This document shows positions 11,823 to 60,900 of a stretch of DNA of 64,000 bases, in pieces. Where the stretch lies: assembly GCA_964606285.1 (NCBI GenBank), contig CAZSFP010000003.1, forward strand, positions 84,967 through 148,966, given 5' to 3'. The position numbers and the translations under genes were made by a program. Each line of letters starts with the position of its first letter. Position 1 is the first letter of the stretch. A model generated the notes under the pieces. That model was not told the origin of the DNA. It saw only the letters and a list, made by a program, of their open reading frames with translations, and made no database searches. The DNA is from an uncultured Candidatus Saccharibacteria bacterium (GTDB lineage: Bacteria; Patescibacteriota; Minisyncoccia; Phycocordibacterales; UBA9973).

Positions 11823-14800
11823 ATGCCAAAAGAACAACCACCAAAAGCACCAAAAGTTAGCGATATGGAAAAAGCAGAACTCGAACAGGAGCTGAAAACC
11901 ATTGAGAAAGCTATAAAATTTGCAAAGACCCGTGAAATTCTTGAGAAATGTTTGATTAAAGCAAAAGGGAAATCTTTTGAATCACAGGTCAAGAAGGCAG
12001 TTGCTGTGCAGTATGATGCACTGGTGGCAAGACTGAATATCAAAGACAATAAAAAAGACATCAAGAAATTCAAGGAATCGTATGGTGTTGATGAAAAATC
12101 TCTCGCGGCTCTTTCAGATGAACCAATAACACCATCTGCCTCTCCAGAACCAGTGGCAATTGTTGCTGCTACTGTGGAAAATAAATCTCCTGAACAAAAA
12201 ATTGCAGACGAATTAGCAGAGCGCGGTTTTTCAAAAAAATCTCTTGGTCCGATTGTCAAAAAGTATGGACCAGGTACTGAGAAGAAATTGCACGCATCGG
12301 GCAAGACGTACGAAGAATACAAAAACTTAAAACCCGCAGAAAAGAAAGAAATTTTTGAAACAGTTGCTGGATCTTCTGATCCCAAAGAAAAAAATGTCCC
12401 GATTGTTGACCCTGAGTTAAAAAATACCGACGTTGAAATACAAAAGCTCGTACTACGGTATCATTATTTAAATGACATGCTGTTCGGTAAAGACAGTACA
12501 AACCTTTCTCCTGTCGTAAAAGCGGCACTGCAAAAAGAATGGGATGAATTTAATTTTGCGCACACTGACATCGTAAAAGCTGAAAATGCACGGTATGGCG
12601 TATCTCCAGATGGATTCCGTATGAATAGTGAAAAGAACTGGCAGGAACTCAAAGAACTTGGGTATACCGCACAAGATGCGATCAAGTGGACAAAATACGA
12701 ATATGAGACAATTTTAAATAACAAAATCAAAAAAGGTGAACCTATTCCTGTACCAGTTGCTCCAAAAGTAAAAGCAGTAGAGCCGGCAGGAAAAATCTTG
12801 TCACCTGAACAAGCAAAGGCGCAGCTCGATCTCAAAGATCGTGGTTTTCCATATGAATATGTCAAAAGTCTCCCAGAGGACAGTCAAAAGAATCTCGCGG
12901 CGTCTAATTTTGTATATCAAACATTTCAAAAACTCAGTCCTAGTGAACAATCTGAGGTATTTCGTGGTGAAAAGAAATTTGAAACGATAAGTACTGCAGA
13001 GGCACTTGCGAATATCAATAAAAACTACGAAGTCACTGATGGTGATTTGGATAGAATATTGTCTAATCTTGATTATGACAATAAAACCTTGAAGGGTATG
13101 AATAGGGAAGAAAAAATGAGTGCCGCAGAAGCAATTCTTGAAGGTGGATTGACCATGCTTGGATATACCAAAGAAGAAATAGACGCTATGCAGCTTCGTC
13201 GTAAAGCGGTGATTGTGAGAATGGGAACAAAAAAAGAAGAAAAAAAGGTGGTTGTGGAACCAGCGGTTAAAACTCCTGTAGTAGTAGAAAATGTTTCAAC
13301 AGAAAAAGCGCTCAAAGATCTCAAAAAACGTGGTTTTGATCCCAAGAAACTTGCAAAGATGCCCGCTGATAGACTACAAAAACTTCATGCATGGGGCGGT
13401 TCTATAAAAGAATTTGGGCCTATGTCTTCTGATGAGGTCAATGAAAAGATTTTTAATTTGCCGCTTGAAGCTATTGTCTCAGTTGCGGCAGTTCAGCCAA
13501 AAATAGAAAAAACAGAACGGAAAAAATTTACCGAAGAAGGTGACGTTAATTTTGTTACACAAAAATTGTTTGGATACGATGAAGAAAGAATAAAAAGAAT
13601 GCCGCTTGAGCAAAAAAAGAACGATATCAAAATGGTGCTTGAATCAAGTCTTCTCGTTCTCGGGTATACACCAGAAGAAATAGAAAAAATGAGTCTTTTG
13701 GGAAAATTTGTTGTTGTTGAAAATGGTATCAAGAGACTAGAAGATCGTGATTTACAAAAAAAGATTATACGGGAAAAAATTGAAGCATTAGATATTCCTG
13801 TAAAAACTCCCTTGTCTGCCATTATTGATCCTGCAAGTGCGGCAACTATGTCCGAAGCACAAAAACTCGACAATCTTGTCGCTCGCGGATTCAGTCACAG
13901 AAAACTTGCTGAAGACAAGTTTTTCACTTCTGAAAAAATAAATCAATTGTATCTTTGGGGTGGTACATATGATGCATACAAGAAAATGAGTGAAAAAGAA
14001 CAGAATGAAAATATTTTTGGTATACAACAAACACCAGTGAGTCCTGTCAAGCAACCAGATAATCTTCCTGAAAAGAAAATTGATGAAGCACTTCTTGCTC
14101 GTGGATTTGGTAATTGGTATATCGAAAGCATGTCTCCTGAAGACAAAGAAAAAATTCATGCATGGGGTGGCACAAAGGATGTCTATGAAAAAATGTCGCA
14201 AGCTGAGCGCATGGAAAAAGTATTTGGCGAACAAGCATCTCTAGCGCCAACAGGTCCGTCTCTGTCCGCTGCTGACAAAAAGATCTATGATGATCTATTA
14301 GCACTCGGTATTTCTAAAAGAAATCTCGATATGTTATCGCCAGTGGGGTTGAAAGAATTTAAAGAAAGTCTTGATCCTCTGTTTGCCAAAGGGTTTAGTG
14401 CAAAAGATATACAAGATTTGAATAATGAAACATGGATACCAAATGATTTCATGGAAAAACTTGAAGTGTGGGGTGGTACACGCGCTGAATTTTTTGCAAT
14501 GAGCCTCGATGAAAGAAAAGAAAAAGTCTTCGGTATAAAACCACCAGTTACTCCTTCTCCGACACAAAACCCACCAACTCCTGTCCAAGGACCAACAGTG
14601 CCACCAGTTATTCCACCACAAGGTCCGCGACCAAAAACTCCAGCAGAAATATTTGAAATGACATCATATGGTGCATCGTATCTCGATAAGGCGACTGGCA
14701 CAATCTACTTTGTTGAACATGCATCACAACAAAAAGACGGTTCTGTTCTTCTTGAATGCCGACTTTCAAACGGCGGCAAAGGTATGCTTCGCCAAGATAA

Positions 14801-17066
14801 ACTCCTTCATGGACTTGAAATCGGTGCATATGAACGCGTTGATCAGCAAAGATTCCTCGAAGAACAGGTCAATACGACCCGTACTATATATGCGACTGAA
14901 TACAAGGACAATCTCAACAGTAGTTGGTGGAAAAAAGGAGTTGTCCGACCTCTTGCGGGTCTTGGAGAATCGCTCGGTCTTTGGCGTCGTGATAACAAAG
15001 CGTTCTTGAGCAAAGAAGGCGAGAGTGCAAAAGAACGATATGATGCAGCAAAGCAAGAGCTTGCAAAATTTGCCGACAAACGTGTAAAAGAAAAAATCGT
15101 TGATCCTGCGCGAATCAAAAGAATTGAAGATGGTTTGAAACGTCGTGCGGCCGCGAAAGGTGAGAAGATCACTGACGAAGAATTGGCACAAGAAGTGAAC
15201 GCAATCCTTGCTCGGTATCGCCGCACGATTCTCGGTCACGGTATTGCGATCGCAGAAACACGAAAGGTCCACGAGACACAAAAGGGACTCTTCCGTTCAA
15301 CAACAGCTGAAACTATTGGCAAAGCAGTCAAATGGTATGGCGGACTTTCAAAGGCATCAAAATTCGGTATTCGTGCCGGCGTGTACACCCTTGCTGGAAT
15401 TTCCGGTATGGGAGCGGCAGCAGCGCTCGGATATGGTATTTATCGTGGTGCAAAAAGCGTAGCCATGTCTGGTCTTATTGCACAAGGGACACATCTTTAT
15501 CGCGCGACGATCGACAAAGCACTTGTTGGTCTATCAGATTCTTCGATCGCAAAAAAGAAACAAACACTTCAGAATTCTATAGAAAAAGGACAGATCAATA
15601 TTCTCGATTATGAGAAACAGATGTCGAACCTTGGTCTCAAGAAAAACAAACATGATGCAATGCGCCGAACAGCTCAAGTCGGTGTGGCATTCGCACTCGG
15701 CTGGGAATCATATAAAGTCCTCGATCAGATAGAAAATACTGATTGGACAACACCACCAACGCCTATTCCAGATGACACAGAAACTGTTCCACCTGCTCCT
15801 CTTCCTGAGCCACACCCATTTCATCTCGATCGTCCAACTGTTGAATTCTCAAGCAAGGGAGCAATTCGAACATTCCTCGAACTCAAAGAGAATTTGAAAG
15901 ATCAACTCGAAGACCAACACATCGCCCTCAATGATCCAAACTTGCCACCAAGTGTCAAAGAGATTTTGAACGGTGATCCGACAGAACTTGCGATCAAATA
16001 CGATTATTACAATCCAGCTGATACGAATGAAAGCGCACTCCTTACACTTCACGGCAAACTTGGTTTTGACGAAAACATGAACCTCGTGCATATGGAACCA
16101 AACGGCGAGAATACAATCCTTGCTGATGGACACACTGGTGCGCTTAAAGAAGATTTTGGTGGCAAATATATCGACAGTGATTATGGTAAGAACATCGAAA
16201 CAAAAATTGGTAGCCCTGAAGAAGAACTCGAAAAGATGAAACTTGAAGCTGAATCAGAAGGCGTTCCTATCAATACGAGTCCTGAAGAAGAACTCAAGAC
16301 ACTGACTGCTGACAAGCTCACTCCGGATGAAATCCTTGCAAAATCAATGGGGGTTGATCATGTTGATACTGTTGAGTTTGACGGCACTCACGCCAACGGT
16401 TCATTTATATTCAAGTATGATGCGGACAACAATATCACTGGAGGTGGTTTTGAAGGTGACTTCAAGCCGATGGATCTCACCACTTCTCCATATCTTCGTT
16501 CTGGTTGGCAGGAAATAGTCAAAGGTAACACCGAGCTTCCGTTTGGTGAAGCTGAAGAGAAGCTCAAAGAATCACTCAGTATACATGCGACACTCGAAGA
16601 CGCGCGTGCAAATCTTCCAAAAACACCCGATTATGATGATGAGCGTCACTACCTCGACGAACAGATAAAGAAAATTGATGAATCTATTAAAAAGGATTTT
16701 GGACCGATCATCAAAACAGATCTCTCTCAAGCACAGTATGAACAAGTAGCACGAGCACACGGAAGAACATTTATAACCGCTGATGCAGAAAATATATTTG
16801 GCAACAAAATGAAACAATGGGATGAACTCGCTCGCATGCCTGCAAATGTAGCAATGGAAAAAATATACGATGGAGACACTGATCTATACGACAGTTTCTC
16901 TGGCAAGCAAGTCGCATTTATCGAACAAGTTGCCCGACCTTTGATTCTCGAAGGAAATACACCACCACTTGGCTCTGAAGATTTTGCGACATACCTCGCA
17001 CGTCTCGAAGGACGGTCTGCTGAAGTCGCAAAAGTGATGGCTGATCAATATAATCTAAGAGCATAA
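11823..17066 (+). CDS. giant repeat protein (1747 aa) with novel ~50-aa repeats, central hydrophobic hairpin and Pro-rich linkers
   Basis: Single uninterrupted ORF. About 7 copies of an RGF/LGY...HAWGGT..Y.KMS..E..EK[IV]FG module. Pro-rich linkers (PPVTPSPTQNPPTPVQGPTVPPVIPPQGPRP; TPPTPIPDDTETVPPAPLPEP). Hydrophobic hairpin GIRAGVYTLAGISGMGAAAALGYGIY. No signal peptide. Confidence 0.7.
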   Translation: MPKEQPPKAPKVSDMEKAELEQELKTIEKAIKFAKTREILEKCLIKAKGKSFESQVKKAVAVQYDALVARLNIKDNKKDIKKFKESYGVDEKSLAALSDEPITPSASPEPVAIVAATVENKSPEQKIADELAERGFSKKSLGPIVKKYGPGTEKKLHASGKTYEEYKNLKPAEKKEIFETVAGSSDPKEKNVPIVDPELKNTDVEIQKLVLRYHYLNDMLFGKDSTNLSPVVKAALQKEWDEFNFAHTDIVKAENARYGVSPDGFRMNSEKNWQELKELGYTAQDAIKWTKYEYETILNNKIKKGEPIPVPVAPKVKAVEPAGKILSPEQAKAQLDLKDRGFPYEYVKSLPEDSQKNLAASNFVYQTFQKLSPSEQSEVFRGEKKFETISTAEALANINKNYEVTDGDLDRILSNLDYDNKTLKGMNREEKMSAAEAILEGGLTMLGYTKEEIDAMQLRRKAVIVRMGTKKEEKKVVVEPAVKTPVVVENVSTEKALKDLKKRGFDPKKLAKMPADRLQKLHAWGGSIKEFGPMSSDEVNEKIFNLPLEAIVSVAAVQPKIEKTERKKFTEEGDVNFVTQKLFGYDEERIKRMPLEQKKNDIKMVLESSLLVLGYTPEEIEKMSLLGKFVVVENGIKRLEDRDLQKKIIREKIEALDIPVKTPLSAIIDPASAATMSEAQKLDNLVARGFSHRKLAEDKFFTSEKINQLYLWGGTYDAYKKMSEKEQNENIFGIQQTPVSPVKQPDNLPEKKIDEALLARGFGNWYIESMSPEDKEKIHAWGGTKDVYEKMSQAERMEKVFGEQASLAPTGPSLSAADKKIYDDLLALGISKRNLDMLSPVGLKEFKESLDPLFAKGFSAKDIQDLNNETWIPNDFMEKLEVWGGTRAEFFAMSLDERKEKVFGIKPPVTPSPTQNPPTPVQGPTVPPVIPPQGPRPKTPAEIFEMTSYGASYLDKATGTIYFVEHASQQKDGSVLLECRLSNGGKGMLRQDKLLHGLEIGAYERVDQQRFLEEQVNTTRTIYATEYKDNLNSSWWKKGVVRPLAGLGESLGLWRRDNKAFLSKEGESAKERYDAAKQELAKFADKRVKEKIVDPARIKRIEDGLKRRAAAKGEKITDEELAQEVNAILARYRRTILGHGIAIAETRKVHETQKGLFRSTTAETIGKAVKWYGGLSKASKFGIRAGVYTLAGISGMGAAAALGYGIYRGAKSVAMSGLIAQGTHLYRATIDKALVGLSDSSIAKKKQTLQNSIEKGQINILDYEKQMSNLGLKKNKHDAMRRTAQVGVAFALGWESYKVLDQIENTDWTTPPTPIPDDTETVPPAPLPEPHPFHLDRPTVEFSSKGAIRTFLELKENLKDQLEDQHIALNDPNLPPSVKEILNGDPTELAIKYDYYNPADTNESALLTLHGKLGFDENMNLVHMEPNGENTILADGHTGALKEDFGGKYIDSDYGKNIETKIGSPEEELEKMKLEAESEGVPINTSPEEELKTLTADKLTPDEILAKSMGVDHVDTVEFDGTHANGSFIFKYDADNNITGGGFEGDFKPMDLTTSPYLRSGWQEIVKGNTELPFGEAEEKLKESLSIHATLEDARANLPKTPDYDDERHYLDEQIKKIDESIKKDFGPIIKTDLSQAQYEQVARAHGRTFITADAENIFGNKMKQWDELARMPANVAMEKIYDGDTDLYDSFSGKQVAFIEQVARPLILEGNTPPLGSEDFATYLARLEGRSAEVAKVMADQYNLRA

Positions 17067-30088: not shown

Positions 30089-30129
30089 TTACGATTTTTC
30101 TGTTGAATGTGCTACACTTTTCGGTATCT

Positions 30130-31833
30130 ATGGATATCCAAGCGATTCTCAAACAAGCTATTGCGCAGGCATGCGCAGATCTTGATTTATCTGTATCAGA
30201 CATCATTCTCGAACATCCGGCGGATCTTTCGCACGGTGATTATTCAACGAATATTGCCCTTGCGAGTGCAAAGCAACTCGGTCGCAATCCGCGCGTTGTC
30301 GCAGAAATGATTGTAGAAAAACTCGAAGAACAACTTCCTGTAGCGGTTGAAAAAGTCGAGATTGCTGGTCCGGGATTTATCAATTTTTACTTGAACCGAG
30401 AATTTTTTACGCAAAGTATTTTTGATATCGGTAAGGCGGGGGCAGGATGGGGAAAGAACGATCATTTTGTCGGCAAGAAAGTGATGATTGAATACACACA
30501 ACCAAATCCGTTCAAACCATTCCATATCGGACATTTGATGTCGAATGCGATCGGGGAGTCTTTGTCGCGTATTATTGAAGCATCCGGTGCGACGCTTGTC
30601 CGGGCAAACTATCAGGGAGATGTTGGACTTCATGTCGCGAAGGCTCTCTATGGACTTTTACAAAAAGGTAAACCGGCAACTGATATGTCTGTCGGTGCAC
30701 AGGCACAATATGTCGGTGAACTGTATTCATGGGCGGCGGGTCTCTATGAGTCTGATGAATCTGTAAAAAAAGAAATTGATATTATAAACAAGAAAGTGTA
30801 TGACCGGTCTGATGAAAAAATAAACGAACTCTATGATTGGGGGAGAGAGGTGACCCTTGCTGCATTTGAAATATTATACAAAACACTCGGCACAAAATTT
30901 GATTATTATTTCTTTGAATCAGAAATGGCAAAGATCGGTGAAAAAATTGTTCGAGAAAATATTGGTCCAGTATTTGAAGAATCCGATGGCGCTATTGTTT
31001 TTCATGCAGAAAAATACGATCCGAAACTCCATACGCGTGTGTTCATTACGTCACAGGGTCTTCCTGCATATGAGACAAAGGAGGTTGGCTTGACGATTAC
31101 AAAATTTGAAAAAGAAAATCCTGATCTCTCTATCATCACGACCGCCATCGAACAAGGTGAATACATGAAGGTGGTCCAAAAAGCAGTATCCTTGATGCAT
31201 CCAGACTACGAATCTCGAATGAAACATGTCACACACGGTATGATGCGCCTCGCGTCTGGCAAGATGTCATCTCGCAAGGGAAATGTCGTGACTGGTGAAT
31301 CACTCATCAGTGATTCGATGGATATGGTGCTTGAGAAAGTAAAAGATCGTGAATTTACCGAAGAACAAAAAGCTATTGTTGCACAAATAGTAGGGGTGGC
31401 TGCACTCAAATACTCTATTCTCCGATCATCACTCGGGTCAGATATCGTGTATGATTTTGAAAAATCTATTTCCTTTGAAGGGGATTCTGGTCCATATCTC
31501 CAGTACACCGCAGTTCGAGCCAATTCAATTCTCGCAAAAGCCGAGAAAGTAACCGCCCATGATACCGTTCCTGAATATGTGACAGAGATAGAGCGAATAC
31601 TGTATCGATTCCCAGAAGTTGTATCGTATGCTTGTGCCGAACTTGAACCACATCATATCGCTGTTTATCTCACCGAACTTGCAAGTGCATTCAATTCATT
31701 TTATGCAAACACACGTATTCTCGATGAAGAAAATGAACATCGAGAATACCAGATCGCTATCGTCACGGCATTTTATACGACGATGAAGAATGGTCTCCAT
31801 CTCCTCGGTATTGAAACTCCAGAAAAAATGTAA
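30130..31833 (+). CDS. argS: arginyl-tRNA synthetase
   Basis: HIGH-type motif PFHIGHLMSNAIGESL, anticodon-binding C-terminus; start set to ATG 30130 (MDIQAIL...) past the upstream terminator. Confidence 0.9.
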   Translation: MDIQAILKQAIAQACADLDLSVSDIILEHPADLSHGDYSTNIALASAKQLGRNPRVVAEMIVEKLEEQLPVAVEKVEIAGPGFINFYLNREFFTQSIFDIGKAGAGWGKNDHFVGKKVMIEYTQPNPFKPFHIGHLMSNAIGESLSRIIEASGATLVRANYQGDVGLHVAKALYGLLQKGKPATDMSVGAQAQYVGELYSWAAGLYESDESVKKEIDIINKKVYDRSDEKINELYDWGREVTLAAFEILYKTLGTKFDYYFFESEMAKIGEKIVRENIGPVFEESDGAIVFHAEKYDPKLHTRVFITSQGLPAYETKEVGLTITKFEKENPDLSIITTAIEQGEYMKVVQKAVSLMHPDYESRMKHVTHGMMRLASGKMSSRKGNVVTGESLISDSMDMVLEKVKDREFTEEQKAIVAQIVGVAALKYSILRSSLGSDIVYDFEKSISFEGDSGPYLQYTAVRANSILAKAEKVTAHDTVPEYVTEIERILYRFPEVVSYACAELEPHHIAVYLTELASAFNSFYANTRILDEENEHREYQIAIVTAFYTTMKNGLHLLGIETPEKM

Positions 31834-32743: not shown

Positions 32744-35700
32744 ATGACAGAAAACAATCAAAAATCAGAAAAATCTCAGGCAGCGCTTCGCGAAGAAGCG
32801 GTATTACAGTTCTGGAAAGACAACAATATTTTCGATAAAACCCTAGAGAAGGAATCTCCGCGCGGTGACTTTGTTTTCTATGAAGGACCCCCAGGAGCAA
32901 ATGGTGTACCGATGCTTCACCATTTTGAAGCACGGGCGTTCAAAGACATCATTCCGCGCTACAAAACTATGCAGGGATATCGCGTTGATCGCCGTGCCGG
33001 TTGGGATTGTCATGGACTTCCTGTCGAACTCCAGGCGGAGAAAGAATTGGGTATTGCATCAAAAAAGGATATCGAAAATTACGGCATCGAAAAATACAAT
33101 GCGTATTGTCGTGAACTCGTGACTCGTTATATTCATGAATGGGATATTTTTACTGAACGGATGGGGTACTGGATCGACAACAATCGTGCCTACTATACGA
33201 TGGACAGTAGCTTCATTGAGTCATCATGGAATATCATCGCAAAAGCGCATGAACGCGGATTTCTTTATCAGGATTACAAAATATTGCCGTGGTGCGCACG
33301 CTGCGGAACGGGATTGTCATCGCATGAACTCGGTCAGCCGGGTGTGTATGTCGATGTGAAGGATTTGTCGGTGTATGCAAAATTTAAAATTGTCGGTGAA
33401 GAAAATACTTTTATGCTTGCCTGGACAACAACACCTTGGACATTGCCGGGAAATGTCGGGCTTGCAGTGGGTATTGATATTGATTATGTAAAATTTGAAT
33501 ACGACGGTTCTGTATATATATCATCTTTAGAGTTTTATAAAAAAGGAGGAAATATAGATTCTACTAAAGAGCTCCCTAAACTTTTAAAAACACTAAAAGG
33601 AAAAGAGTTAATTGAATTGGAATACGAGCCACTCTATCCATATCTCGCAGAACTCGATCGTGGTGATGAGAAATTGCAGAATGCCTACAAAGTCTATGCG
33701 GCGGATTTTGTGACGACAACAGATGGAACAGGTATTGTACATACAGCGGTTATGTATGGCGCGGATGACTTTGAACTTGGAACAAAAGTTGGTTTGCCAA
33801 AGTTCCATCTCGTTGATCCAACAGGTCATTTCATACAAGGGACAGGTAACTTTGCGGGACGATTCGTCAAAGACGAAGATGTCGCGATCGATGTCATCAA
33901 AGATCTCGCACACAGAGGTTTGCTTTTCAAAAAAGAAAAATACGAACACGCATATCCGCATTGTTGGCGCTGCAAGACGCCACTCATCTACTATGCACGA
34001 TCATCGTGGTACTTTGCGATGTCGAAACTTCGTGAGGAAATGGTTGCACGAAATCAAACGATCAATTGGGAACCGGTGCATATCAAAGATGGTCGATTTG
34101 GCGAATGGCTTCGTGATGCGAAAGATTGGGCAATTTCCCGTGAACGATATTGGGGAACACCGCTTCCTGTATGGATTGCTGAAGATGGCGAGAAGCTGGT
34201 TGTTGATTCGTTTGAAACGCTCAAGGAACACAGCACTGATCAAGTCACCAAGATCTTGTTTGTTCGCCACGGACAATCAGATGCAAATGTTCTCGGTATG
34301 TCATCGAGCAATCATGACACTCATCCTTTGACGGATAAGGGCAGAGAACAGGCACGTCATACAGCAAAGCTTTTGAAAGATCAAAACATAGATGTTGTTT
34401 TTTCATCGCCAATTTTGCGTGCACGACAAACTGCAGACGAATATTGTTTATTGGTTGGAAAAACAGCAATCATCGATGAACGCATCGCTGAAATAAAAAG
34501 TGGTAACTGGGAAGAAAAACCTGCGACTGATCTCGATCTTCTCGCGTCTCGAAAAGCGTACAAGGATTTATCTATAGAAGAACGATATATCACAAAACGA
34601 GGAGAAACTGGTGAAAGTTGGGCTGAAGTTGATGTTCGTGTCCAGAATTTTCTCAATGATGTTCTCGAGAAATACAAAGGCAAAACGATTCTTTGTTTTG
34701 CGCATCAGGGAACAGATGCAGTTGCACTGAAGCTCCTCAAAGGTCTATCCAACGAAGAATCAATTAAGACGATATTCCACAATATGGATCTTGTCGACAA
34801 TGGATCAATCGCGACCGTGTATGTCGATGCAAAAACAAAAAAAGAACTCGACCCACATCGACCGTTCATTGATGAAATAGTTCTTGAAAAGAATGGAAAG
34901 AAATTTACCCGTGTCAAAGAAGTCATGGACGTGTGGTTTGATTCTGGAGCAATGCCACTCGCACAGGATCACTATCCATTCCAAAACAAAGAAAAGATCG
35001 ACAATGGTGGGTATCCGGCAGATTTTATATCAGAAGCAATCGACCAAACTCGCGGTTGGTTCTATACACTTGTTGCCGTGTCTGCACTTATCGATCGGCC
35101 GGCACCATTTCAAAATGCCATTTGTCTCGGACACTTGCTCGATGCCGAGGGACAGAAAATGTCCAAATCAAAAGGCAATGTCATCAATCCATGGGAACAA
35201 ATGGATAAGTTCGGCGCGGACGCTGTTCGCATGTGGATGTACTCAGTGACACAACCGGGGGATTCAAAGAACTATGATGAGAAAGTTGTTCGTGAATTCA
35301 ACAACAAAATATTTGGCCTTCTCGGTAATGTCGTTTCATTCTATAAGTTGTATCGTGATACCTCACTAGAGCCTCTGGCATCCAATCTAAAACCTGCTCA
35401 CGTTTTGGATCAATGGATTCTTTCACGACTACATCAATTCACAAAGCTTGTTACAGAATCTCTCGATGCATACAAAATATTTGAACCGGCTCGTGGTTTT
35501 CGTGACTTTGTCGATGATCTGTCGACATGGTATCTTCGCCGATCCCGTGATCGACTCAAAGATGGTGATGTAGAAGCAAAACAGACACTCTATGTTGTTT
35601 TGAAAACACTTGCGAAGTTGCTTGCGCCATTTGCGCCGTTTACTGCAGAAGAAATGTGGCAGGAATTGAAACTTGATAATGAACAGGAAAGCGTCCATCT

Positions 35701-36193
35701 TGCCCCATGGCCAGTTTCAGGAGAAATCTCAGAAGAGCTACGGGAAAACATGCAGCTCGTTCGTGATCTCTGTGCTGTCGGACACGCGCTTCGCAGCAAG
35801 GCCGGTATCCCAGTCCGCCAAGTCCTCGCGACGTTCTTTGTCACCGAGGACCTCACAGATGCATACAAGGAAATCATGAAAGATGAAATGAATGTCAAAG
35901 CGATCGAAAAAGGTCCGGTTATTATTTTCGATGAACGTATCACTCCTGAACTCAAGCAGGAAGGGCAGTCACGAGAACTTATCCGTGCAATCCAAGATCT
36001 CCGCAAGAAATCCGGTCTCAACCCTGATGATGTCATAACATTGTCTGTATCTACAGATGAATCCGGTACAGCAATTATTGAATCGTTTGCATCCGACATT
36101 CAAAAAGTTGTGAACGCAAAAGAAATCGTCTTTGGAGAAAATGAAGGGGAAGAGATAAAAATTGATGAAATAGTATTTAAGGTTAAAATATAA
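32744..36193 (+). CDS. ileS: isoleucyl-tRNA synthetase with in-frame histidine-phosphatase domain insertion
   Basis: IleRS motifs (HHFEARAFKD = HIGH region; WISRERYWGTPLP; KMSKSKGNV). About 200 extra residues (nt ~34250-34870) between WGTPLP and DVWFDSG carry RHGQSDAN, SSPILRARQTA, GETGESW and CFAHQG, the histidine-phosphatase / dPGM signature. Confidence 0.9.
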   Translation: MTENNQKSEKSQAALREEAVLQFWKDNNIFDKTLEKESPRGDFVFYEGPPGANGVPMLHHFEARAFKDIIPRYKTMQGYRVDRRAGWDCHGLPVELQAEKELGIASKKDIENYGIEKYNAYCRELVTRYIHEWDIFTERMGYWIDNNRAYYTMDSSFIESSWNIIAKAHERGFLYQDYKILPWCARCGTGLSSHELGQPGVYVDVKDLSVYAKFKIVGEENTFMLAWTTTPWTLPGNVGLAVGIDIDYVKFEYDGSVYISSLEFYKKGGNIDSTKELPKLLKTLKGKELIELEYEPLYPYLAELDRGDEKLQNAYKVYAADFVTTTDGTGIVHTAVMYGADDFELGTKVGLPKFHLVDPTGHFIQGTGNFAGRFVKDEDVAIDVIKDLAHRGLLFKKEKYEHAYPHCWRCKTPLIYYARSSWYFAMSKLREEMVARNQTINWEPVHIKDGRFGEWLRDAKDWAISRERYWGTPLPVWIAEDGEKLVVDSFETLKEHSTDQVTKILFVRHGQSDANVLGMSSSNHDTHPLTDKGREQARHTAKLLKDQNIDVVFSSPILRARQTADEYCLLVGKTAIIDERIAEIKSGNWEEKPATDLDLLASRKAYKDLSIEERYITKRGETGESWAEVDVRVQNFLNDVLEKYKGKTILCFAHQGTDAVALKLLKGLSNEESIKTIFHNMDLVDNGSIATVYVDAKTKKELDPHRPFIDEIVLEKNGKKFTRVKEVMDVWFDSGAMPLAQDHYPFQNKEKIDNGGYPADFISEAIDQTRGWFYTLVAVSALIDRPAPFQNAICLGHLLDAEGQKMSKSKGNVINPWEQMDKFGADAVRMWMYSVTQPGDSKNYDEKVVREFNNKIFGLLGNVVSFYKLYRDTSLEPLASNLKPAHVLDQWILSRLHQFTKLVTESLDAYKIFEPARGFRDFVDDLSTWYLRRSRDRLKDGDVEAKQTLYVVLKTLAKLLAPFAPFTAEEMWQELKLDNEQESVHLAPWPVSGEISEELRENMQLVRDLCAVGHALRSKAGIPVRQVLATFFVTEDLTDAYKEIMKDEMNVKAIEKGPVIIFDERITPELKQEGQSRELIRAIQDLRKKSGLNPDDVITLSVSTDESGTAIIESFASDIQKVVNAKEIVFGENEGEEIKIDEIVFKVKI

Positions 36194-36195
36194 AT

Positions 36196-36501
36196 ATGGA
36201 AAAAGAATCATTTAAACAAGAAAATGATCCACGATTGGAAAAGCTTTTGGAATACATAAAACCAATAATTCAAAAAGAATATCCACTTGTTGATATTACA
36301 TTGGGTAATGTTCAAGATGAGTTTTTCTTGTCAGTTGTTCGACAGGGAGCGGGGAATTTTATCGGCTATGCGTCTTTTGATACTTTTGAAGAATTGGAAA
36401 CATTTTTATTTGAAGAAAAATATAAACCTTGGTTTGATATTGGAGAAAACACAAATAAAAAAAATTTTGGATTGACGGAGGGTGGTATCAGTAAAAATTA
36501 A
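36196..36501 (+). CDS. hypothetical protein (101 aa), coupled to ileS
   Basis: ATG 3 nt after ileS stop. Confidence 0.45.
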   Translation: MEKESFKQENDPRLEKLLEYIKPIIQKEYPLVDITLGNVQDEFFLSVVRQGAGNFIGYASFDTFEELETFLFEEKYKPWFDIGENTNKKNFGLTEGGISKN

Positions 36502-36505
36502 AATA

Positions 36506-36551
36506 AAAAAGTCTACACTTTGACGCGGTCACGTTAATGTGTAGACTTTTT
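36506..36551. terminator. bidirectional intrinsic terminator
   Basis: AAAAAGTCTACAC...GTGTAGACTTTTT with inner GACGCGGTCACG. Confidence 0.55.
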
Positions 36552-36557
36552 GCTTTT

Positions 36558-37088
36558 TTATATAGACATAGCAAGTCGATATTCCTTGCTTCCTTTTAGT
36601 AACATTGCTTTTTCAAGAAATAATTTTTTTCCTGCGACATTGTAGGTTTCTACTGATGTAGATAAAAGATAGTAATGTGCCAAGATCCTCATTTCTTGTA
36701 CGATGAGAAACTTTCTCTTCATCATGATTTTTTCGGTAAAAATTTCTTTTGGAATGATAAATTCATCTGCAAGATTTTCATGTACATTTTTGTGTCCTTC
36801 CACAACGCCAGAACATTCGGCATACTTTTCATATATGGGGTAGAGATCATTTTTATCTGTTGCTGGTCCATAGCCCTTGAACATCAAAAGTTCACACAAG
36901 AGTAAGTATTTTTCATCATTGAGTATGCGTAACTTTTTATCTCTTTTCATCATAATGACCTGTTTTAGAGTGGTGTCCGTTGTAAATTCTGGGTCATTGT
37001 TGTTGTTTATTGTTGAAAAGAAAAGCATTATTTCAAGGGGTGTTAGGTATTCTTGAAAAAGAATTTCTAGGGTCGTAAATTTATTCAT
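36558..37088 (-). CDS. hypothetical protein (176 aa), paralog of 37211..37699
   Basis: AT-rich (~30% GC) ORF; shares the (Y/H)YxxxxS(S/T)V and ExYxxxxG blocks with the neighbour. Confidence 0.5.
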   Translation of the reverse strand: MNKFTTLEILFQEYLTPLEIMLFFSTINNNNDPEFTTDTTLKQVIMMKRDKKLRILNDEKYLLLCELLMFKGYGPATDKNDLYPIYEKYAECSGVVEGHKNVHENLADEFIIPKEIFTEKIMMKRKFLIVQEMRILAHYYLLSTSVETYNVAGKKLFLEKAMLLKGSKEYRLAMSI

Positions 37089-37165
37089 GTTTTTAAATTT
37101 ATTTGTTTTTTAAGAGACTACGGGTTTTGTGTCATATTGTCAAATAAAATGCGCACTGAGTGAAA

Positions 37166-37196
37166 TAAAAAATCCCCGATATTCGGGGATTTTTTG
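37166..37196 (-). terminator. intrinsic terminator
   Basis: AAAAAATCCCCGATATTCGGGGATTTTTTG. Confidence 0.55.
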
Positions 37197-37210
37197 AAAC
37201 TAGGAAGTTT

Positions 37211-37699
37211 CTATTTCTCGTAATATTCTTTTATGTACATTTTTGCGGTTATCACAAAGAAATTTTTGTTGACAGTGCTTGAGCCTATATCTGCGTAATA
37301 CAATTGCCTGATCGTGTGTAGTGATTTCAAAAGGCTGAAAAGTGGTTTTTCAGGAATATGTTCCTGAATATTTTTTGGCAGAGCTACTTTACGGGCAAAT
37401 TCACCACTATAGTTTTCATGGTCATTCATCATTGCAAGTGTGGTTGGAATATATCTTGAAAAGAAAGGATACTGCTCTGGAGTAGAAATGAATTCCATAA
37501 AAATTTCACAGATGTTCATATATGTCTCATCGTTCATCTTTTTTTGCATCTCGTCACCTGTTTGGGATATTATTTCTCTCAGAGAAATTCCGCTGTCAAA
37601 AAGTTTTTCCAGCTTCCTTCTTGCATTGGAAGATATTTTTATTTCTTCAAGTAATTCTTGTAAAGTGCTTGATTCAGTGAGTCCGCTCGTGATTGTCAT
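37211..37699 (-). CDS. hypothetical protein (162 aa), paralog of 36558..37088
   Basis: See previous feature. Confidence 0.5.
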   Translation of the reverse strand: MTITSGLTESSTLQELLEEIKISSNARRKLEKLFDSGISLREIISQTGDEMQKKMNDETYMNICEIFMEFISTPEQYPFFSRYIPTTLAMMNDHENYSGEFARKVALPKNIQEHIPEKPLFSLLKSLHTIRQLYYADIGSSTVNKNFFVITAKMYIKEYYEK

Positions 37700-37847
37700 A
37701 GTACAGAGTATTTAGTATTTAAATTTTCTTCACTCTACTCTTTATTTTAAATTTGTCAACAATTATTACTTTCATTTATTCTTTGTAATTCGTATACTAG
37801 TATTGTATTTGTATTGACTACAAACTACTTTCTACTCACTAGTTTTT

Positions 37848-38420
37848 ATGCATCACATCTATCACACCCATGCAGTCATCCTCCATGCACGGCCAGTCGG
37901 CGAACGAGACATGTTTCTCAGTCTTTTTACGCACGAATTTGGTGCACTGTCGGTCAAGGTGACTGGCGTACGGACGATCAAATCAAAACTTCGACCATCA
38001 CTCGTGGCGGGATCATGGATTCGAGCTGATCTCGTGCGAGGGAGAGAGATTTGGCGGTTGACGAGCGCGGCAGCCGATACGTCCTTTTTTGCACTTCCAA
38101 GTACTGCTCGTCCTGCGTATGCACGTGGACTTCGTTTGATCGGACGTCTCTGTCGTGGGGAACAGGCACATGATGCGATCTATGACGACATGCGAATATT
38201 TTTCAGTTTGCTTGCAGCCGGAGAGCAAAAAGACTATCCGAGCATCGAAGGACTCTTTGCACTCCGTGTCCTGTATCATCTCGGGTATTGGGGCGATCAG
38301 GAATTGTATCGTCCATATCTGACGACATCGTTTACGCGCGAGTTGATCGAAACATTTTCACAGGCGTTGCCAGTGGCAATTCCAAAAATCAACCAGTCTC
38401 TCCACGAAACGCAGTTGTAA
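37848..38420 (+). CDS. recO: DNA repair protein RecO
   Basis: N-terminal OB-fold region typical of RecO (AVILHARPVGERDMFLSLFTHEFGALSVKVTGVR); GC about 55%. Confidence 0.7.
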   Translation: MHHIYHTHAVILHARPVGERDMFLSLFTHEFGALSVKVTGVRTIKSKLRPSLVAGSWIRADLVRGREIWRLTSAAADTSFFALPSTARPAYARGLRLIGRLCRGEQAHDAIYDDMRIFFSLLAAGEQKDYPSIEGLFALRVLYHLGYWGDQELYRPYLTTSFTRELIETFSQALPVAIPKINQSLHETQL

Positions 38421-40436: not shown

Positions 40437-41750
40437 ATGACAGACGCAACTTTGATGGAAAAACTTATCTCACTCTGCAAACGCCGGGGATTCATTTTTC
40501 AAGGATCCGAGATTTATGGTGGCTTGGCGGGAACCTGGGATCTCGGTCACTTGGGCGGAGAACTCGTCAACAATATAAAACATTCATGGTGGAAAAAATT
40601 TGTTTCTGATCGCGAAGATATGTATGGCATTCGTGCTGCAATTTTGATGCGCAGTGAAGTCTGGGAAGCCAGCGGTCACGTCGCTGGATTTGCTGATCCG
40701 ATGGTTGAATGTCCAAAATGCCAACAACGATTTCGTGCTGATCAGATAGAAACTGTAGATGGTAGTCAATATTGTCCTGATGACAAAGCAGTGCTCGGTA
40801 CTCCGCGTCAATTCAATATGATGTTCAAGACACAAGTTGGCGCTGCCGAAGATTCTTCTGCGACAGCATATCTTCGTCCTGAAACAGCACAGGGTATTTT
40901 TGTAAATTTCAAAAGTACACTGGATGCATATCACCCGAAACTACCATTTGGTATGGCGCAAATCGGCAAAGCATTTCGTAACGAGATTACACCTCGAGAC
41001 TTTGTGTTTCGTTCTCGAGAATTCGAGCAGATGGAAATCGAATATTTTATAAAAGAATCTGATTGGGAAAAATACTTTGAACATTTCCGTGTTGAAATGA
41101 CTGACTGGATGAACAGTGTGGGTATCGATATGAATAAAGTATCTGAGCTTGAAGTATCAACAGAGGATTTGGCACACTATTCAAAGCGGACGATAGATTT
41201 CGAATTTGAATATCCTTTCGGCAAGAAAGAACTCTTTGGTCTTGCATACCGCGGAAATTTTGATTTGACCAATCACAAACTCGATTACTTTGATGAAGAA
41301 TCAGGAGAGCGATTCGTACCACATGTTATCGAACCATCATTTGGTGTTGAACGAGCGCTGCTCGCATTACTTTTGTCTGCGTATACAGAAGATGAACAAA
41401 ATGGGGAAGTGCGAACATATTTGAAATTGAAACCATCTATTGCGCCTACTATCTGTGCGGTTTCACCACTTCTTAAAAACAAACCTGAGCTCGTTGAAAA
41501 AGCTCGTGGTGTATTTACACTCCTCAAAAAAGAATTTGGCCGTGTCGCATGGGATGACAATGGTAACATCGGCAAGCGCTACCGCCGCCAAGATGAAATC
41601 GGTACGCCATGGTGTATCGTCATCGACTTTGACACACTTGGTGAAAATCCAGACCTCCTCGATACTGTCACGATTCGTGATCGAGACACAGGTACCCAAG
41701 AGCGAATTGCTATTAGTGATTTGGTGTCTAAAATAAAATCTCAACTATAA
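40437..41750 (+). CDS. glyQS: glycyl-tRNA synthetase (dimeric alpha2 type)
   Basis: Class-II motifs and Zn-knuckle region (ECPKCQQRFRADQ); anticodon-binding C-terminus; 437 aa. Confidence 0.9.
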   Translation: MTDATLMEKLISLCKRRGFIFQGSEIYGGLAGTWDLGHLGGELVNNIKHSWWKKFVSDREDMYGIRAAILMRSEVWEASGHVAGFADPMVECPKCQQRFRADQIETVDGSQYCPDDKAVLGTPRQFNMMFKTQVGAAEDSSATAYLRPETAQGIFVNFKSTLDAYHPKLPFGMAQIGKAFRNEITPRDFVFRSREFEQMEIEYFIKESDWEKYFEHFRVEMTDWMNSVGIDMNKVSELEVSTEDLAHYSKRTIDFEFEYPFGKKELFGLAYRGNFDLTNHKLDYFDEESGERFVPHVIEPSFGVERALLALLLSAYTEDEQNGEVRTYLKLKPSIAPTICAVSPLLKNKPELVEKARGVFTLLKKEFGRVAWDDNGNIGKRYRRQDEIGTPWCIVIDFDTLGENPDLLDTVTIRDRDTGTQERIAISDLVSKIKSQL

Positions 41751-57521: not shown

Positions 57522-57977
57522 AACGAATTTTGTCTCGTCTCTATATACGTCCCCCTTGCACTCTGCGGGGTGGGGTACTATACTAGAACCTACACAGATA
57601 TATGGCATTTTCTATAGATATATGCTAGTATCTGTGCATGTGTTTTGGTTCAGGTGCCATCATCTGAAACAAGGCGCATTGGGCAGATCATTGATAATAA
57701 AATATTGAGTACGGTTCGGTTTCCGGACCGCTCACGTTTTGTTTTCTTTGTATCTGTCGTATCGGCCCTGTCGACATGGCAGATACTATTTTCTGAAAAG
57801 AAAATAGCATCAAAATGGTATATGTCGCGCCATCGATATATATCGCGCGGTACTCGCGTTTCGAGTACACATTTTAACGACAGACATGCCATCATGTTTG
57901 TCAGTTTCTTTAACGCATACTCGTGGTTTGTCGAAATCATCTGTAACATGCGTTTTCGATTCCTTAATTATAAAGAT

Positions 57978-60900
57978 ATGAAAAATACTGTGAAAAAAAT
58001 CGTTGGATTTACAGTTGCTCTTCTTGCTCTCGTAGGCGTTGCCTCTTCAGCATCAGCAGCAGCATGTACTTCATACACGTTCGGTTCTGGCGTTTACACC
58101 GTCGGATCACCAGCGAGTTCATACATCAAAGAAGTCCAACAGTTTCTTAATGCAAACGGTGCAGTCGTCTCAACCAGCGGTGCTGGCTCTGCAGGCTACG
58201 AAACCATGAATTATGGTCCAAAGACTAAAGCCGCTGTTCGCGTATTCCAGGTTGCACACGGAGTAGCGAATACTGGTAACTTCGGTCCAATTACCCGTGC
58301 TGCTGCACTTGCTGTTCAAACAGCAAACTGTGGTAACACACAAACACCTCCACCACAAAGTGGTCCGGTGTCTGCTAGTTTGGCTTCAAACACACCAGCA
58401 TCAGGAACATTAGTTTCTGGTTCTAGTACAGCTCAAGCAACAGCTGATCTCGCACACTTTATGTTCTCAGGAAATGGCGTTGTCACAAACGTTACCCTCC
58501 AACGTATCGGTGTTTCAGCTGATTCAACACTTTCAAACGTTTACTTGTTTGACGGTGCAAATCGTTTGACTGATGCTTCTTCAGTATCAAATAACGGCAT
58601 GATTTCATTTAACATCCCAGCAGGTATCTTTACTGTTGCTGGTATGAAAAATATCTCTGTCAAATCTGATATTGCAGCAGGTACTTCAGGACAAACAGTT
58701 GGTGTAAAACTTGTGTCATTCGTGGCATCAGGTTCACCAGCTTCAACTGTAAATATTTCTGGAAACCTTCATTCAATCGCAAATGCTACACTTGCAACGG
58801 TTGGAGCGGGAACAGTTACTCCAACAGCAGCAACAGTAGATCCTGCTGCGGGTGTAACAGTATGGCAATCAACTCTTACTATCGCAAACAGAGATGTTTG
58901 GATGAAGAGACTGGCATTGCGTAATCTCGGATCTGCACCAGCATCATCGTTCGCAAACTTCAAATTGTTTGTCAATGGTATTCAAGTTGGTACAGCTGCA
59001 GGAGTTGATGCAAATGGCTATGTTACATTTGATCTTAACGCAGCACCGACACTGCTTGTTTCAGGAGCGAGAGTTGTTCGTGTTGATGCTGATATTGTTT
59101 CAGGTTCTTCACGTACATTCCAATTTTCACTCCGAAACGCAGCTGACGTTGACTTTGTCGATTCAAGCTTCGGTGTGAACATCTCACCTACATCTACTCC
59201 TTGGACATCAGCAACTGCTAATACCATCAGTGGATCTTCAGGTGGTACATTAACTATTGCTAAAGATATCTCATCACCGTCAATTAACCTCGTTAATGCG
59301 GCAAGTGATGCAGTTATCGGCGTATTCAAAGTTACAGCGTATGGCGAACCTATTAAATTAGAAAATATTCGAGCTACATATACATCTTCTGATGCGAACA
59401 TCGGATCACTCCGAAATGGACGTATCTTGATCAATGGAGTTCAATATGGTTCAACAGCTACTTTGAACGAAGACTCTCAAGGTACACCGTATACTCAATA
59501 CACATTGAACTATACTGTTGTTCCTGGAAGTCCCGTATTACTTGAAGTACGCGCTGATATCTACGACAATGATGGTACAGACAGTATCACTGCAGGTACA
59601 GACACTATCAATGCAACAATAGCGGCTGGTTCTACAAATGCACAAAGAGTTGATTCTCTTGGTTCATTTAGTTCTCCATCTTCTGCTGTTTCTTCAAACA
59701 CATTGACTATTGCTTCTACCTCTCTCACATTGTCAAAGAATGGAACATATGCAAACCAAAGCACAACTCTTCCTGCAAGTGGTTTCAAGATAGGTTCTTG
59801 GAATCTTGCTGGTTCTTCTGTAGAAAGTGTTCTCTTGTCTACTCTTTCATTTGATGTAGATGAATCTACAGGTACAGAGTTCGACGAAGGTGATATGACA
59901 AATATCTATGTCGTTGTTAAAAATGGTAATACAGTCGTTGCTTCTCCAACACCACTTTCAACAGGTAGTACAGGTGCTGATTTGAACTTCTCAATCAACT
60001 ACACACTTCCTGCAAACCAAAGTCTTTCAATTGAATTGTTTGCAGATCTTGCAGACGATACTCTTGATAAAGTCGCTGGTGTATCTAGTGGTACTGATGC
60101 TATTGATGCAACTGACTCATTCGTCACAGATCTTACTGTGACTGGTACATCCAATAGTGGTACAGCTATTACAGCAACTTCTGCTGATACGGCTGGTCAA
60201 ATTATTGCATATGCTGCAGCTACATTAGTTGCAGTAATAGATCCTTCTTCACCGGTGAAAGGTATTACCTATGATAATCAAACTGTAACTTCTGCTGCAT
60301 TTAAGTTCACTTCAACAACAAGTGCCTTTAATGTCAGTGATGTTACTTTGACTATCCCTGCGTCCGGCGCAACAGTTGTTCAGTCTGTTATGTTATATGA
60401 TGGTGCAACATTGCTTGGTACACAACCAGGTGGAACGACTTCAGTTTCATTCTCTGGTCTTACCTTCGGTGTTCCGGCTAACCAATCTAAAGTTCTTACT
60501 GTAAAACTACAGCTTGGACCAGTTGGTGTCGGCGCGGGCACATCTCAATCTTCACTCCTCACAACACTTACAGCATTTACTTCTGTAACTGGAGGTGTGT
60601 CAGATGTTTCTGCGAATGACTCTGGTCAATCACAAGAAAATAACCCAGCGTCTGCTGTAACAAGTGTATACGCTGCTATTCCAGTTATCTCGAAAGTAAA
60701 TCTTTCTGGTGATACACTTGGACAAGGTAGTGGATATCTCACAAACGGTACAGGTGTTCCACTCATGCGTTTCAAAGTTGATGCGACAGGTGGTCCAGTT
60801 GCTTGGAACCAAGTATTCTTTGATGTAATCAAAGACAGTGCTACAGTATTTGCTAGTGCAACCCTATGGGATGTAACTGGTGGTGGAAACACACAAATTA

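Follow-up and report, generated by a model that had tools for sequence, protein, structure and literature searches.

What kind of enzyme is the histidine phosphatase that lies inside the reading frame of an isoleucyl-tRNA synthetase (IleRS), how did it come to be there, and what could it do? These questions are raised by ileS in a 64,000-nucleotide stretch of contig CAZSFP010000003.1 (hereafter the window), from an uncultured, ultra-small bacterium of the Patescibacteria, or candidate phyla radiation (CPR). A first-pass annotation, made from the sequence alone, had described a continuous open reading frame (ORF) of 1149 residues with an in-frame branch-1 histidine phosphatase between the WxISRxRYWG and DVWFDSG blocks. 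Both observations were borne out by the ORF itself, by Pfam and by alignment with the IleRS structure 8c8w. The inserted domain carries a fixed set of catalytic residues, behaves as an exchangeable cassette, and may be an autonomous phosphomonoesterase displayed on a working synthetase. The features of the gene are listed in Table 1.

The nested domain and its host synthetase

The distance between the WISRERYWGTPLP and DVWFDSG blocks, expected in the first-pass annotation to be 40-60 residues, is 56 residues in the type-2 IleRS (IleRS2) of P. megaterium (8c8w); whereas it is 253 residues in the window IleRS. In the alignment with 8c8w, query residue 501 corresponds to chain position 482 and query residue 702 to position 486. 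About 200 residues therefore take the place of a 3-residue loop, which fixes the insertion point that such an alignment had been expected to reveal. The limits drawn earlier (34250-34870, about 200 residues) needed only a small correction, to 34247-34846, and agree within about 25 nucleotides. The anticipated Pfam match to His_Phos_1 (PF00300) was found at residues 504-681 (E = 4e-35; 121.6 bits against a gathering threshold of 21.7; profile positions 1-174 of 194). The gathering threshold, the catalytic core set and the alpha/beta fold all place the insert in this family.

The insertion site belongs to connective peptide 3 (CP3), which is the segment from the WxISRxRYWG linker to the DxWFDSG strand (residues 473-534 in C. 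albicans and 459-526 in S. cerevisiae) (PMC7191050, PMC7955072). CP3 lies at the periphery, bridges connective peptide 2 (CP2) and the second Rossmann half, and varies in topology from one solved IleRS to the next (PMC7191050). The yeast equivalent of the linker (453ARDWNVSRNRYWG465) forms part of the pocket for reveromycin and the tRNA A76 3' end (PMC7955072), and CP3 of human IARS1 is a docking surface for LARS1 (PMC13439101). The insert had been assigned to the catalytic core, and it is indeed nested within the Rossmann fold region; however, since CP3 is peripheral and topologically variable, its actual place is the tip of a solvent-exposed and plastic subdomain outside the catalytic core proper. 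Residues H705, P707 and D710, in the C-terminal half of CP3, are invariant in the 70 full-length orthologues that were aligned, which came from loci among the best 80 of 386 matches in the Genome Taxonomy Database (GTDB).

All four motifs quoted in the first-pass annotation were present, namely RHGQSDAN (from residue 508), SSPILRARQTA (554), GETGESW (620) and CFAHQGTD (651); but the Glu of GETGESW had to be replaced as the proton donor. This role is assigned to E583 in DERIAEIKSG, which has PhoE-like spacing and was aligned to the catalytic-Glu region of PspA (4ij5). E583 is invariant in the orthologues; whereas E621 is not conserved, and E624 is part of the conserved GES motif of the family. 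R508, H509, R559 and H654 are also invariant, and N515 is conserved in 96% of the sequences, in line with the earlier view that the catalytic set is intact and the domain probably active. The mean identity to the window protein is only 31% in the insert, compared with 62% in the N-terminal and 54% in the C-terminal part of the synthetase. Because the catalytic residues stay fixed at such a low identity, purifying selection acts on catalysis in a fast-evolving domain. The substrate cap (residues 588-622) is poorly conserved. The window protein has an extra cap segment of 8 residues (597-604; nucleotides 34532-34555), which is absent from 65 of the 70 orthologues.

The insert modelled alone with AlphaFold2 (AF2) reached a predicted local distance difference test (pLDDT) score of 94.1 and a predicted template modelling (pTM) score of 0.90. 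Foldseek matched this model to phosphatases of about 200 residues (CobC 6e4b, PspA 4ij5/4ij6, riboflavin HFP, GpgP and PhoE 1h2e), with template modelling (TM) scores of 0.80-0.83 and root-mean-square deviations of 2.1-2.9 Å. The best sequence matches in the PDB were the same small phosphatases, PspA, CobC and PhoE among them (E = 3e-12 to 2e-9). The mutases had lower target coverage, with TMt values of 0.64-0.72 against 0.80-0.83 for the small phosphatases. In NCBIfam, the equivalog models for dPGM, CobC, PspA, GpmB and SixA all scored the insert under their curated cutoffs. For phosphoglycerate mutase (dPGM), the excised insert obtained 38.9 against 81.7 with TIGR01258 and 92-97 against 225 with NF038349; it has I-K-S-G instead of R-H-Y-G after E583, and it is only about 200 residues long. 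The marks of a dPGM are taken by us to be E-R-H-Y-G at the catalytic Glu, a length of about 250 residues and a C-terminal tail. Membership of the CobC equivalog (TIGR03162; 78-83 against 162.9) and of the PspA equivalog (NF045917; 65-68 against 350) was rejected as well, so that the likeness to these two enzymes is limited to fold and mechanism.

Because the equivalog models stay below their cutoffs and I-K-S-G follows E583, the insert is classified, by sequence and model, as a phosphatase-type branch-1 histidine phosphatase of the CobC/PspA/PhoE kind with predicted activity, and not as a phosphoglycerate mutase. The earlier label ‘dPGM-like’ is correct at the superfamily level; it does not hold further, given the dPGM scores, the I-K-S-G residues and the phosphatase relatives of about 200 residues. 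The small branch-1 phosphatases include the alpha-ribazole-5'-phosphate phosphatase CobC (6E4B/6NRU), the phosphoserine phosphatase PspA (4IJ5), PhoE (1H2E), GpgP (Rv2419c; 4PZ9) and the riboflavin-pathway HFP (9MMH). They share with the insert the fold of about 200 residues, the catalytic residues with their spacing, and a small cap; whereas they are only 21-26% identical to it and are free-standing, and the insert is nested in another enzyme. The actinobacterial RNase HI/CobC-like acid phosphatase (NCBIfam NF005567) differs in being an end-to-end fusion with another partner, and the window protein scored 75 bits with this model against 326. It is a bifunctional protein of the Rv2228c/SCO2299 type, in which a CobC/PhoE-like histidine phosphatase is covalently joined to RNase HI, an enzyme of nucleic-acid metabolism.

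The insert was considered as an intein and rejected, in agreement with the first-pass annotation. Pfam found no Hint or intein family and no homing-endonuclease domain. The junctions of the window protein read EHSTDQV|TKILF (V501|T502) and KTKKE|LDPHRP (E701|L702), without C, S or T at the +1 position and without a terminal HN followed by C, S or T. In the majority type of insert, PLPHN at the end precedes a position that varies (E, Q, A, K or V) but is not C, S or T. Inteins and other in-frame insertions are similar to this domain in that they are large, lie in the conserved catalytic domain of an essential protein, are patchy in occurrence and are exchanged between lineages. In contrast to inteins, the insert lacks a Hint fold, splice residues and a homing endonuclease, and appears to be a retained and functional enzyme domain.

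The host protein passes the NCBIfam equivalog threshold for ileS (TIGR00392; 855 bits against 621.4), and its best matches among the other models were the type-2 enzymes MupB (744 bits) and MupA (718 bits). The top PDB match was 8c8w (E = 1.6e-225); whereas the type-1 enzyme 8c9f gave only 1e-99. The closest entries by both sequence and fold were P. megaterium IleRS2 (8c8w/8c9d) and the T. thermophilus enzyme (1ile). Pfam showed tRNA-synt_1 split in two by His_Phos_1, followed by Anticodon_1 and then by DUF5915. The latter domain agrees with the C-terminal organisation of type-2 enzymes, which lack the zinc-binding treble clef. In the editing domain of connective peptide 1 (CP1), both AWTTTPWTLPG (found in 68 of the 70 family sequences) and TDGTGIVHTAVMYGADDFE (of the GTGxVH type, reading GTGIVH) are present, and the structures of isolated IleRS editing domains (1wk8 and 1wny) match residues 202-406. 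The class I signature is MLHH, which occurs in 2 of the 70 sequences; GIHH occurs in 31 and ALHH in 27 (58 of 70 together). The G/AxHH form is a functional IleRS2 variant tied to mupirocin hyper-resistance, and a form starting with Met was absent from the variants tested (Brkic et al. 2023, PMC10485003).

Judged by its sequence, the product of the window ileS is the housekeeping IleRS, of type 2, of a Patescibacteria (Parcubacteria/Paceibacteria-type) bacterium, with the synthetic, editing and anticodon-binding elements all predicted to be intact. Together with P. megaterium IleRS2 (8C8U/8C8W), the T. thermophilus enzyme (1ILE) and MupA/MupB, it has the Rossmann fold, the connective peptide core, the CP1 editing domain, CP2, CP3, the anticodon-binding domain and the type-2 C-terminal domain. 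The KMSKS and editing motifs are preserved, and an xxHH signature was already known from IleRS2. The window protein differs from these enzymes in the exchange of the CP3 loop for an enzyme domain, and in a signature that begins with Met instead of Gly or Ala. The full-length AF2 model (pLDDT 85.9, pTM 0.71) is confident for the synthetase body from about residue 155 onwards, for the insert and for the junctions. Residues 1-155 were poorly modelled, because the alignment supplied to AF2 consisted of sequence fragments and not of full-length orthologues.

Table 1. Position of ileS and its functional elements in the window, with the evidence for each
Feature	Position	Strand	Evidence
ileS, type-2 IleRS, 1149 aa, hosts the insert	32744..36193	+	Continuous ORF; TIGR00392; PDB sequence and fold matches
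Class I signature M57-L58-H59-H60, non-canonical (canonical HxGH)	32912..32923	+	70-sequence family comparison
CP1 editing domain, aa ~200-406, WTTTPWT and GTGxVH intact	33341..33961	+	Alignment to 1wk8 and 1wny
CP2-CP3 linker, W462-AISRERYW-G471	34127..34156	+	Invariant or nearly so in the family
CP3 N-terminal half, aa 472-501, two strands and one helix	34157..34246	+	AF2 strands 476-479 and 484-486, helix 490-496; 8c8w alignment to query 501
Nested His_Phos_1 domain, aa 502-701, type W	34247..34846	+	PF00300; AF2 model; Foldseek
R508-H509, codons cgc cac, RHG motif; H509 is the predicted phospho-acceptor nucleophile	34265..34270	+	Invariant, 70/70
N515, codon aat, phosphate pocket	34286..34288	+	96% conserved in 70 orthologues
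R559, codon cgt, second phosphate-binding Arg	34418..34420	+	Invariant in 70 orthologues
E583, codon gaa, predicted general acid/proton donor, D-x-R-x-x-E-x-x-x-G motif	34490..34492	+	Invariant; aligns with PspA 4ij5 EDRIIEIDHG
H654, codon cat, second catalytic His	34703..34705	+	Invariant in 70 orthologues
CP3 C-terminal half, aa 702-728, LDPHRPFID motif	34847..34927	+	8c8w alignment resumes at query 702 = chain 486
DVWFDSG strand, aa 729-735, second Rossmann half restarts	34928..34948	+	Invariant, 70/70
KMSKS loop, aa 805-809	35156..35170	+	Motif search; KMSKS in 69/70 orthologues
Anticodon-binding domain, aa 889-1026, and type-2 C-terminal domain DUF5915, aa 1052-1149	35408..36190	+	PF08264 E = 3.8e-35; PF19302 E = 9.6e-17

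Distribution, exchange and further copies of the phosphatase

Relatives of the arrangement were searched in GTDB, with one genome per species, using a query of 243 residues that comprised the insert and both junctions, and 386 stretches were confirmed. The best 80 of these span nearly the whole query, from the phosphatase to DVWFDSG (residues 1-4 to 239-243 of 243), and all of them are from metagenome-assembled genomes (MAGs) of the Patescibacteria type, including the closed 876-kb chromosome OY969557.1 (L064). The first-pass annotation had proposed that related ileS genes be checked for the insert; it was found in at least 80 GTDB species representatives, and is lacking from the IleRS2 of some other CPR groups. 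A search with the insert and its junctions also returned dozens of proteins combining tRNA-synt_1 and His_Phos_1, with 35-52% identity, from organisms named as Paceibacterota, Uhrbacteria, Niyogibacteria and Patescibacteria. When relatives were ranked by flank identity, 39 of the 40 nearest to the window carried the insert. IleRS2 proteins that run across the junction without an insert occur, for example, in Uhrbacteria (P0026 and P0114) and Saccharimonadales (P0074). Chance resemblance is ruled out by these sequence data, given the E-values and the recurrence of the architecture in at least 80 independent assemblies.

Two short contigs (1.2-1.6 kb) labelled ‘Nanoarchaeota archaeon’ (P0021) and ‘Sedimentisphaerales bacterium’ (P0015) carry insert-bearing fragments with flanks about 60% identical to the window IleRS; these are most likely mis-binned Patescibacteria contigs. 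An exact-sequence look-up of the window protein found no record. No second histidine-phosphatase gene was found in the window, or in the 80 loci within about ±4 kb of each related ileS. Nothing in the open-access papers and bioRxiv preprints searched describes an aminoacyl-tRNA synthetase (aaRS) with a histidine phosphatase in it, and no curated family for the architecture was found. The earlier statement that no aaRS with such a phosphatase is known therefore stands, within this literature, for published descriptions; however, the architecture is common in public Patescibacteria MAGs. It is widespread yet unreported so far as we found; whereas both components, and accessory domains of aaRS in general, are of known kinds.

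The history of the insert was examined with a host tree (903 columns) and an insert tree (190 columns), each with 60 bootstraps. The window protein and three others (L001, L002 and L003) were grouped in none of the host bootstraps (0%); whereas they were grouped in all of the insert bootstraps (100%). The nearest hosts of the window (L014, L007 and L017) are 66-67% identical in the host part, but their inserts are just 31-33% identical. Similarly, L012 is the nearest host of L001-L003 (81-86% in the N part and 73% in the C part), and its insert is only 25-26% identical to theirs. A segment scan limited the switch of identity to residues 502-701, and the host pattern returned on either side. 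A host tree from 166 flank residues was unresolved (13 parsimony changes), and is superseded by the nearest-neighbour ranking and the 903-column tree.

At least three types of junction can be recognised at this single site. The majority type (M) reads KKSGNxY(F/V)xMRHG at the start and PLPHNxxYELD at the end. The type W junctions read ITKI(I/L)FVRHG and VYVDxxTxKE(L/F)D, and are found in the window, L001-L003, P0001, P0130, P0144 and others; the window junctions (residues 494-504 and 692-701) contain neither KKSGNxY nor PLPHNxxYELD. Type R, with RFTKxTxxRH(G/A), is that of the first copy in tandem forms, and L004 is similar. Since the host tree is in conflict with the insert tree and a single residue position is shared by at least three insert lineages, the domain is regarded as a replaceable module, and the phosphatase behaves, as far as sequences can tell, as an exchangeable cassette. 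The cassette was probably swapped by recombination via its flanks, which are highly conserved. Within the lineage the arrangement is old and has mostly been passed on vertically; the module itself has changed at least twice, by replacement or by exchange between ileS genes. What selection appears to keep at this site of IleRS is ‘a phosphatase’, and not a certain lineage of it.

A search with the insert alone covered 1.84 billion representatives, and the architectures were then classified locally. Tandem phosphatase pairs occur at the CP3 site of five IleRS proteins (P0122, P0127, P0133, P0135 and P0139). A second copy lies in another IleRS loop, near residue 870 of the window protein, in P0121, P0126, P0188 and P0220, and a copy near residue 750 was found in P0147 and P0188. 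Valyl-tRNA synthetase (ValRS) has the domain too: P0227/P0272 (NF004349; 786 bits against a cutoff of 704) carries a phosphatase just ahead of the DTWFSS strand, at the equivalent CP3 position. P0272 also has an extra insertion of about 125 residues (about 450-575) directly upstream of the phosphatase. The full R-H-N-R-E-H set is present in 73 of 92 synthetase-embedded domains. Every extra copy retains this set, except that the third copy of a ValRS fragment (P0123) has Ala for Asn.

In an all-against-all comparison, the ValRS phosphatase was nearest to free-standing phosphatases of about 180-190 residues (41-45% identity) and not to the IleRS inserts; it was therefore captured independently. 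In the same comparison, copy 1 and copy 2 of the tandem forms each grouped with their own kind, so that the tandem state is old and vertically inherited. These comparisons indicate that the phosphatase was also duplicated or added at other loops, and was separately acquired by ValRS. About 65 of the roughly 139 non-synthetase domains closest to the insert come from proteins with two tandem histidine-phosphatase domains (such as P0137, P0140 and P0145, of about 400-430 residues), and tandem duplication of this domain is, from the sequences, common outside the synthetases too.

Other enzymes were found nested in these synthetases. P0177 (1066 residues; JGI ‘isoleucyl-tRNA synthetase’) contains an IS200-like Y1 transposase domain in CP1 (residues 340-461) and a GNAT domain (residues 935-1063) in addition to the phosphatase, and P0245 (895 residues) has a GNAT domain within CP1 (residues 265-374). 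The family ileS_w_GNAT (NF040702) is the sole curated precedent found for an unrelated enzyme domain in IleRS, and P0177 and P0245 combine GNAT with the phosphatase at the CP3 site (site A). It differs from the present case in the enzyme, GNAT versus histidine phosphatase, and in the loops that are used (CP1 or near residue 750). The window protein is not a member of this family (322.7 bits against 1999), and Pfam gave no GNAT match in it. The class Ia synthetases of the CPR appear to be hot spots for nested domains. The presence of both GNAT and Y1 transposase domains points to loops that tolerate insertions more than to a specific chemical coupling.

What the nested phosphatase might do

The reading that we favour, with belief and doubt about equally balanced, is that of a phosphomonoesterase that works autonomously and is carried by a housekeeping IleRS with its full function. 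The nested domain would fold on its own, which requires adjacent N- and C-termini. R508, R559, H654 and N515 would grip the phosphate, and H509 would attack it and form a phospho-histidine intermediate; E583, as general acid and base, would protonate the leaving group, and water would then free the phosphate. The substrate would most likely be a small phosphorylated metabolite or nucleotide, and IleRS would mainly serve as a stable, constitutively expressed scaffold with unaffected aminoacylation. The phosphate pocket of the histidine-phosphatase fold accepts phosphomonoesters. Hydrolysis of the aminoacyl-adenylate, suggested in the first-pass annotation, is chemically unlikely for such a fold, and this compound is not the expected substrate.

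This reading is preferred because the nearest relatives are small-molecule phosphatases, the domain is not basic, its cap is variable, its active site is probably distal, and unrelated domains are nested in the same synthetases. The embedded domains are acidic to neutral, with median isoelectric points of 5.5-6.4, and are no more basic than their free-standing relatives. The active site probably lies about 20 Å from the attachment point, since β1, the strand that begins at the junction, leads to the RHG motif. Several findings weigh against an autonomous enzyme. The insert is under the curated cutoff of every equivalog family. In the majority type, KKSGNxY and PLPHNxxYELD are strongly conserved as junction motifs, and the junctions of the window insert have pLDDT values of at least 90 in the full-length model. 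The cassette turns over rapidly, up to four copies occur per chain (four in tandem in the ValRS fragment P0123), and the sister editing synthetases IleRS and ValRS have recurrently captured the domain at the equivalent CP3 position. Recurrence, copy number, conserved and confident junctions and rapid turnover together may be signs that the function is linked to the synthetase, or that an arms race is under way.

A function of this kind is an unlikely but serious alternative to the scaffold reading. The nested domain might work in cis, on a target in transit through the synthetase, such as a phosphorylated or pyrophosphorylated tRNA 3' end (in repair or as an anti-toxin), AMP, pyrophosphate, other released nucleotides, or an inhibitory phosphate on the synthetase itself. 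A tether to CP3 beside the A76 pocket would raise the local concentration, and the turnover of cassettes would then reflect an arms race. The CP2-CP3 linker that lines this pocket is immediately upstream of the insert (PMC7955072), and the domain recurs specifically in IleRS and, independently, in ValRS at the equivalent site. The majority type with its conserved junction motifs, the confident AF2 junctions, and the actinobacterial proteins in which RNase HI is fused to a small histidine phosphatase of related type (NF005567 was among the matches) are also in favour of such coupling. Moreover, the conflict between host and insert trees, with three lineages at one site, resembles the diversification of conflict systems. 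However, the isoelectric points give no sign of an RNA-binding surface, the cap that shapes specificity is variable, and the nearest sequences and folds are small-molecule phosphatases. We know of no RNA-end phosphatase in the histidine phosphatase superfamily, which also counts against it. The GNAT and transposase-like domains in the same proteins suggest general permissiveness of the loops, and the topology probably puts the active site away from the junction.

A more specific form of the coupled function is rather doubtful. The nested phosphatase would be a cis-acting ‘cleaning’ or counter-defence module tied to tRNA charging, which acts on a blocked tRNA 3' end, on the synthetase, or on a phosphorylated inhibitor or nucleotide at the entrance of the active site. 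If so, the replacement of cassettes, the presence of 2-4 copies and the capture by ValRS would be traces of an arms race in which the class Ia synthetases of episymbiotic CPR bacteria are targeted by toxins, phages or host factors.

It is improbable that the domain is chiefly a sensor or docking module, which would bind a phosphorylated ligand or partner and tune IleRS allosterically or recruit it, with catalysis being secondary. CP3 of human IARS1 does serve protein docking (PMC13439101), the junction motifs are conserved, and the attachment is close to the active-site linker. However, the nucleophile His, the general-acid Glu and the phosphate-binding residues are invariant, and mere binding needs neither E583 nor H509. 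A specific protein interface would also be hard to keep in a module that is freely swapped for versions only about 25% identical.

Little credence is given to a selfish in-frame mobile insertion, in which a DNA element bearing a phosphatase ORF would enter tolerant loops in essential genes and be retained, without benefit to the host, because its excision is lethal. The presence of multiple copies, at more than one site and in two different hosts, the cassette-like exchange, and the in-frame IS200-like Y1 transposase domain of P0177 might be taken in this way. The guanine plus cytosine (GC) content of the insert is also slightly lower (0.40-0.41) than that of its flanks (0.44-0.47). However, Pfam found neither Hint/intein nor homing-endonuclease domains, and the junctions of the insert lack terminal repeats, whether direct or inverted; the only repeats nearby are weak, of chance level, and do not lie at both junctions. 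Strict purifying selection on the catalytic residues in at least 70 species is not expected of a functionless passenger, and the inheritance is mostly vertical. An assembly chimera, a frameshifted pseudogene or a mis-called fusion of adjacent genes has a negligible probability: the exact protein has no other record and so no independent replicate of this assembly, but the ORF is continuous, both essential halves of IleRS flank the insert in frame, both parts fold confidently in AF2, and mis-assembly is excluded by the recurrence of the architecture, at the same residue-level position, in at least 80 species genomes that were assembled independently, the closed OY969557.1 among them.

Implications and surrounding genes

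The aaRS are among the most conserved enzymes, and their accessory domains have repeatedly revealed editing, signalling and complex assembly. Here, an enzyme of another class, catalytically intact by sequence, lies within the catalytic domain of an essential synthetase across a large branch of the CPR. It offers a natural and well-sampled system for the insertion and swapping of domains in essential proteins; CP3 and two other loops may be engineerable insertion sites in class Ia synthetases. A question of CPR physiology is also raised, namely which phosphate ester needs to be removed beside IleRS and ValRS. The annotation of public genomes is affected as well. These proteins are recorded as ‘class I tRNA ligase family protein’, a label that hides the phosphatase, or as ‘isoleucyl-tRNA synthetase’, and fragments are mislabelled as ‘probable phosphoglycerate mutase’. 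In NCBIfam there is an exception model for the GNAT form of ileS, and none for the phosphatase form.

The neighbouring genes of ileS were uninformative on the function of the insert, and no tRNA gene or Rfam family was found at the gathering threshold in the 64-kb window. Within 12 kb there are three aaRS genes, with ileS situated between argS (30103-31833) and a class II synthetase gene (40437-41750). Directly downstream of ileS is a stretch of low GC content (36150-37800; 0.28-0.35, compared with about 0.43 in the flanks), with three small ORFs that have no significant Pfam match (36196-36501 on the forward strand, and 36558-37088 and 37211-37699 on the reverse strand). A RecO-like gene (37848-38420) is located just beyond it. 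Elsewhere in the window, an ORF of 1747 residues (11823-17066, forward strand) had no Pfam match at E <= 1e-5. Two other large ORFs of the surface type are present: one of 1202 residues (57645-61253) has PG_binding_1 as its only match, and the other (62053-63831) contains collagen repeats and Fib_succ_major.

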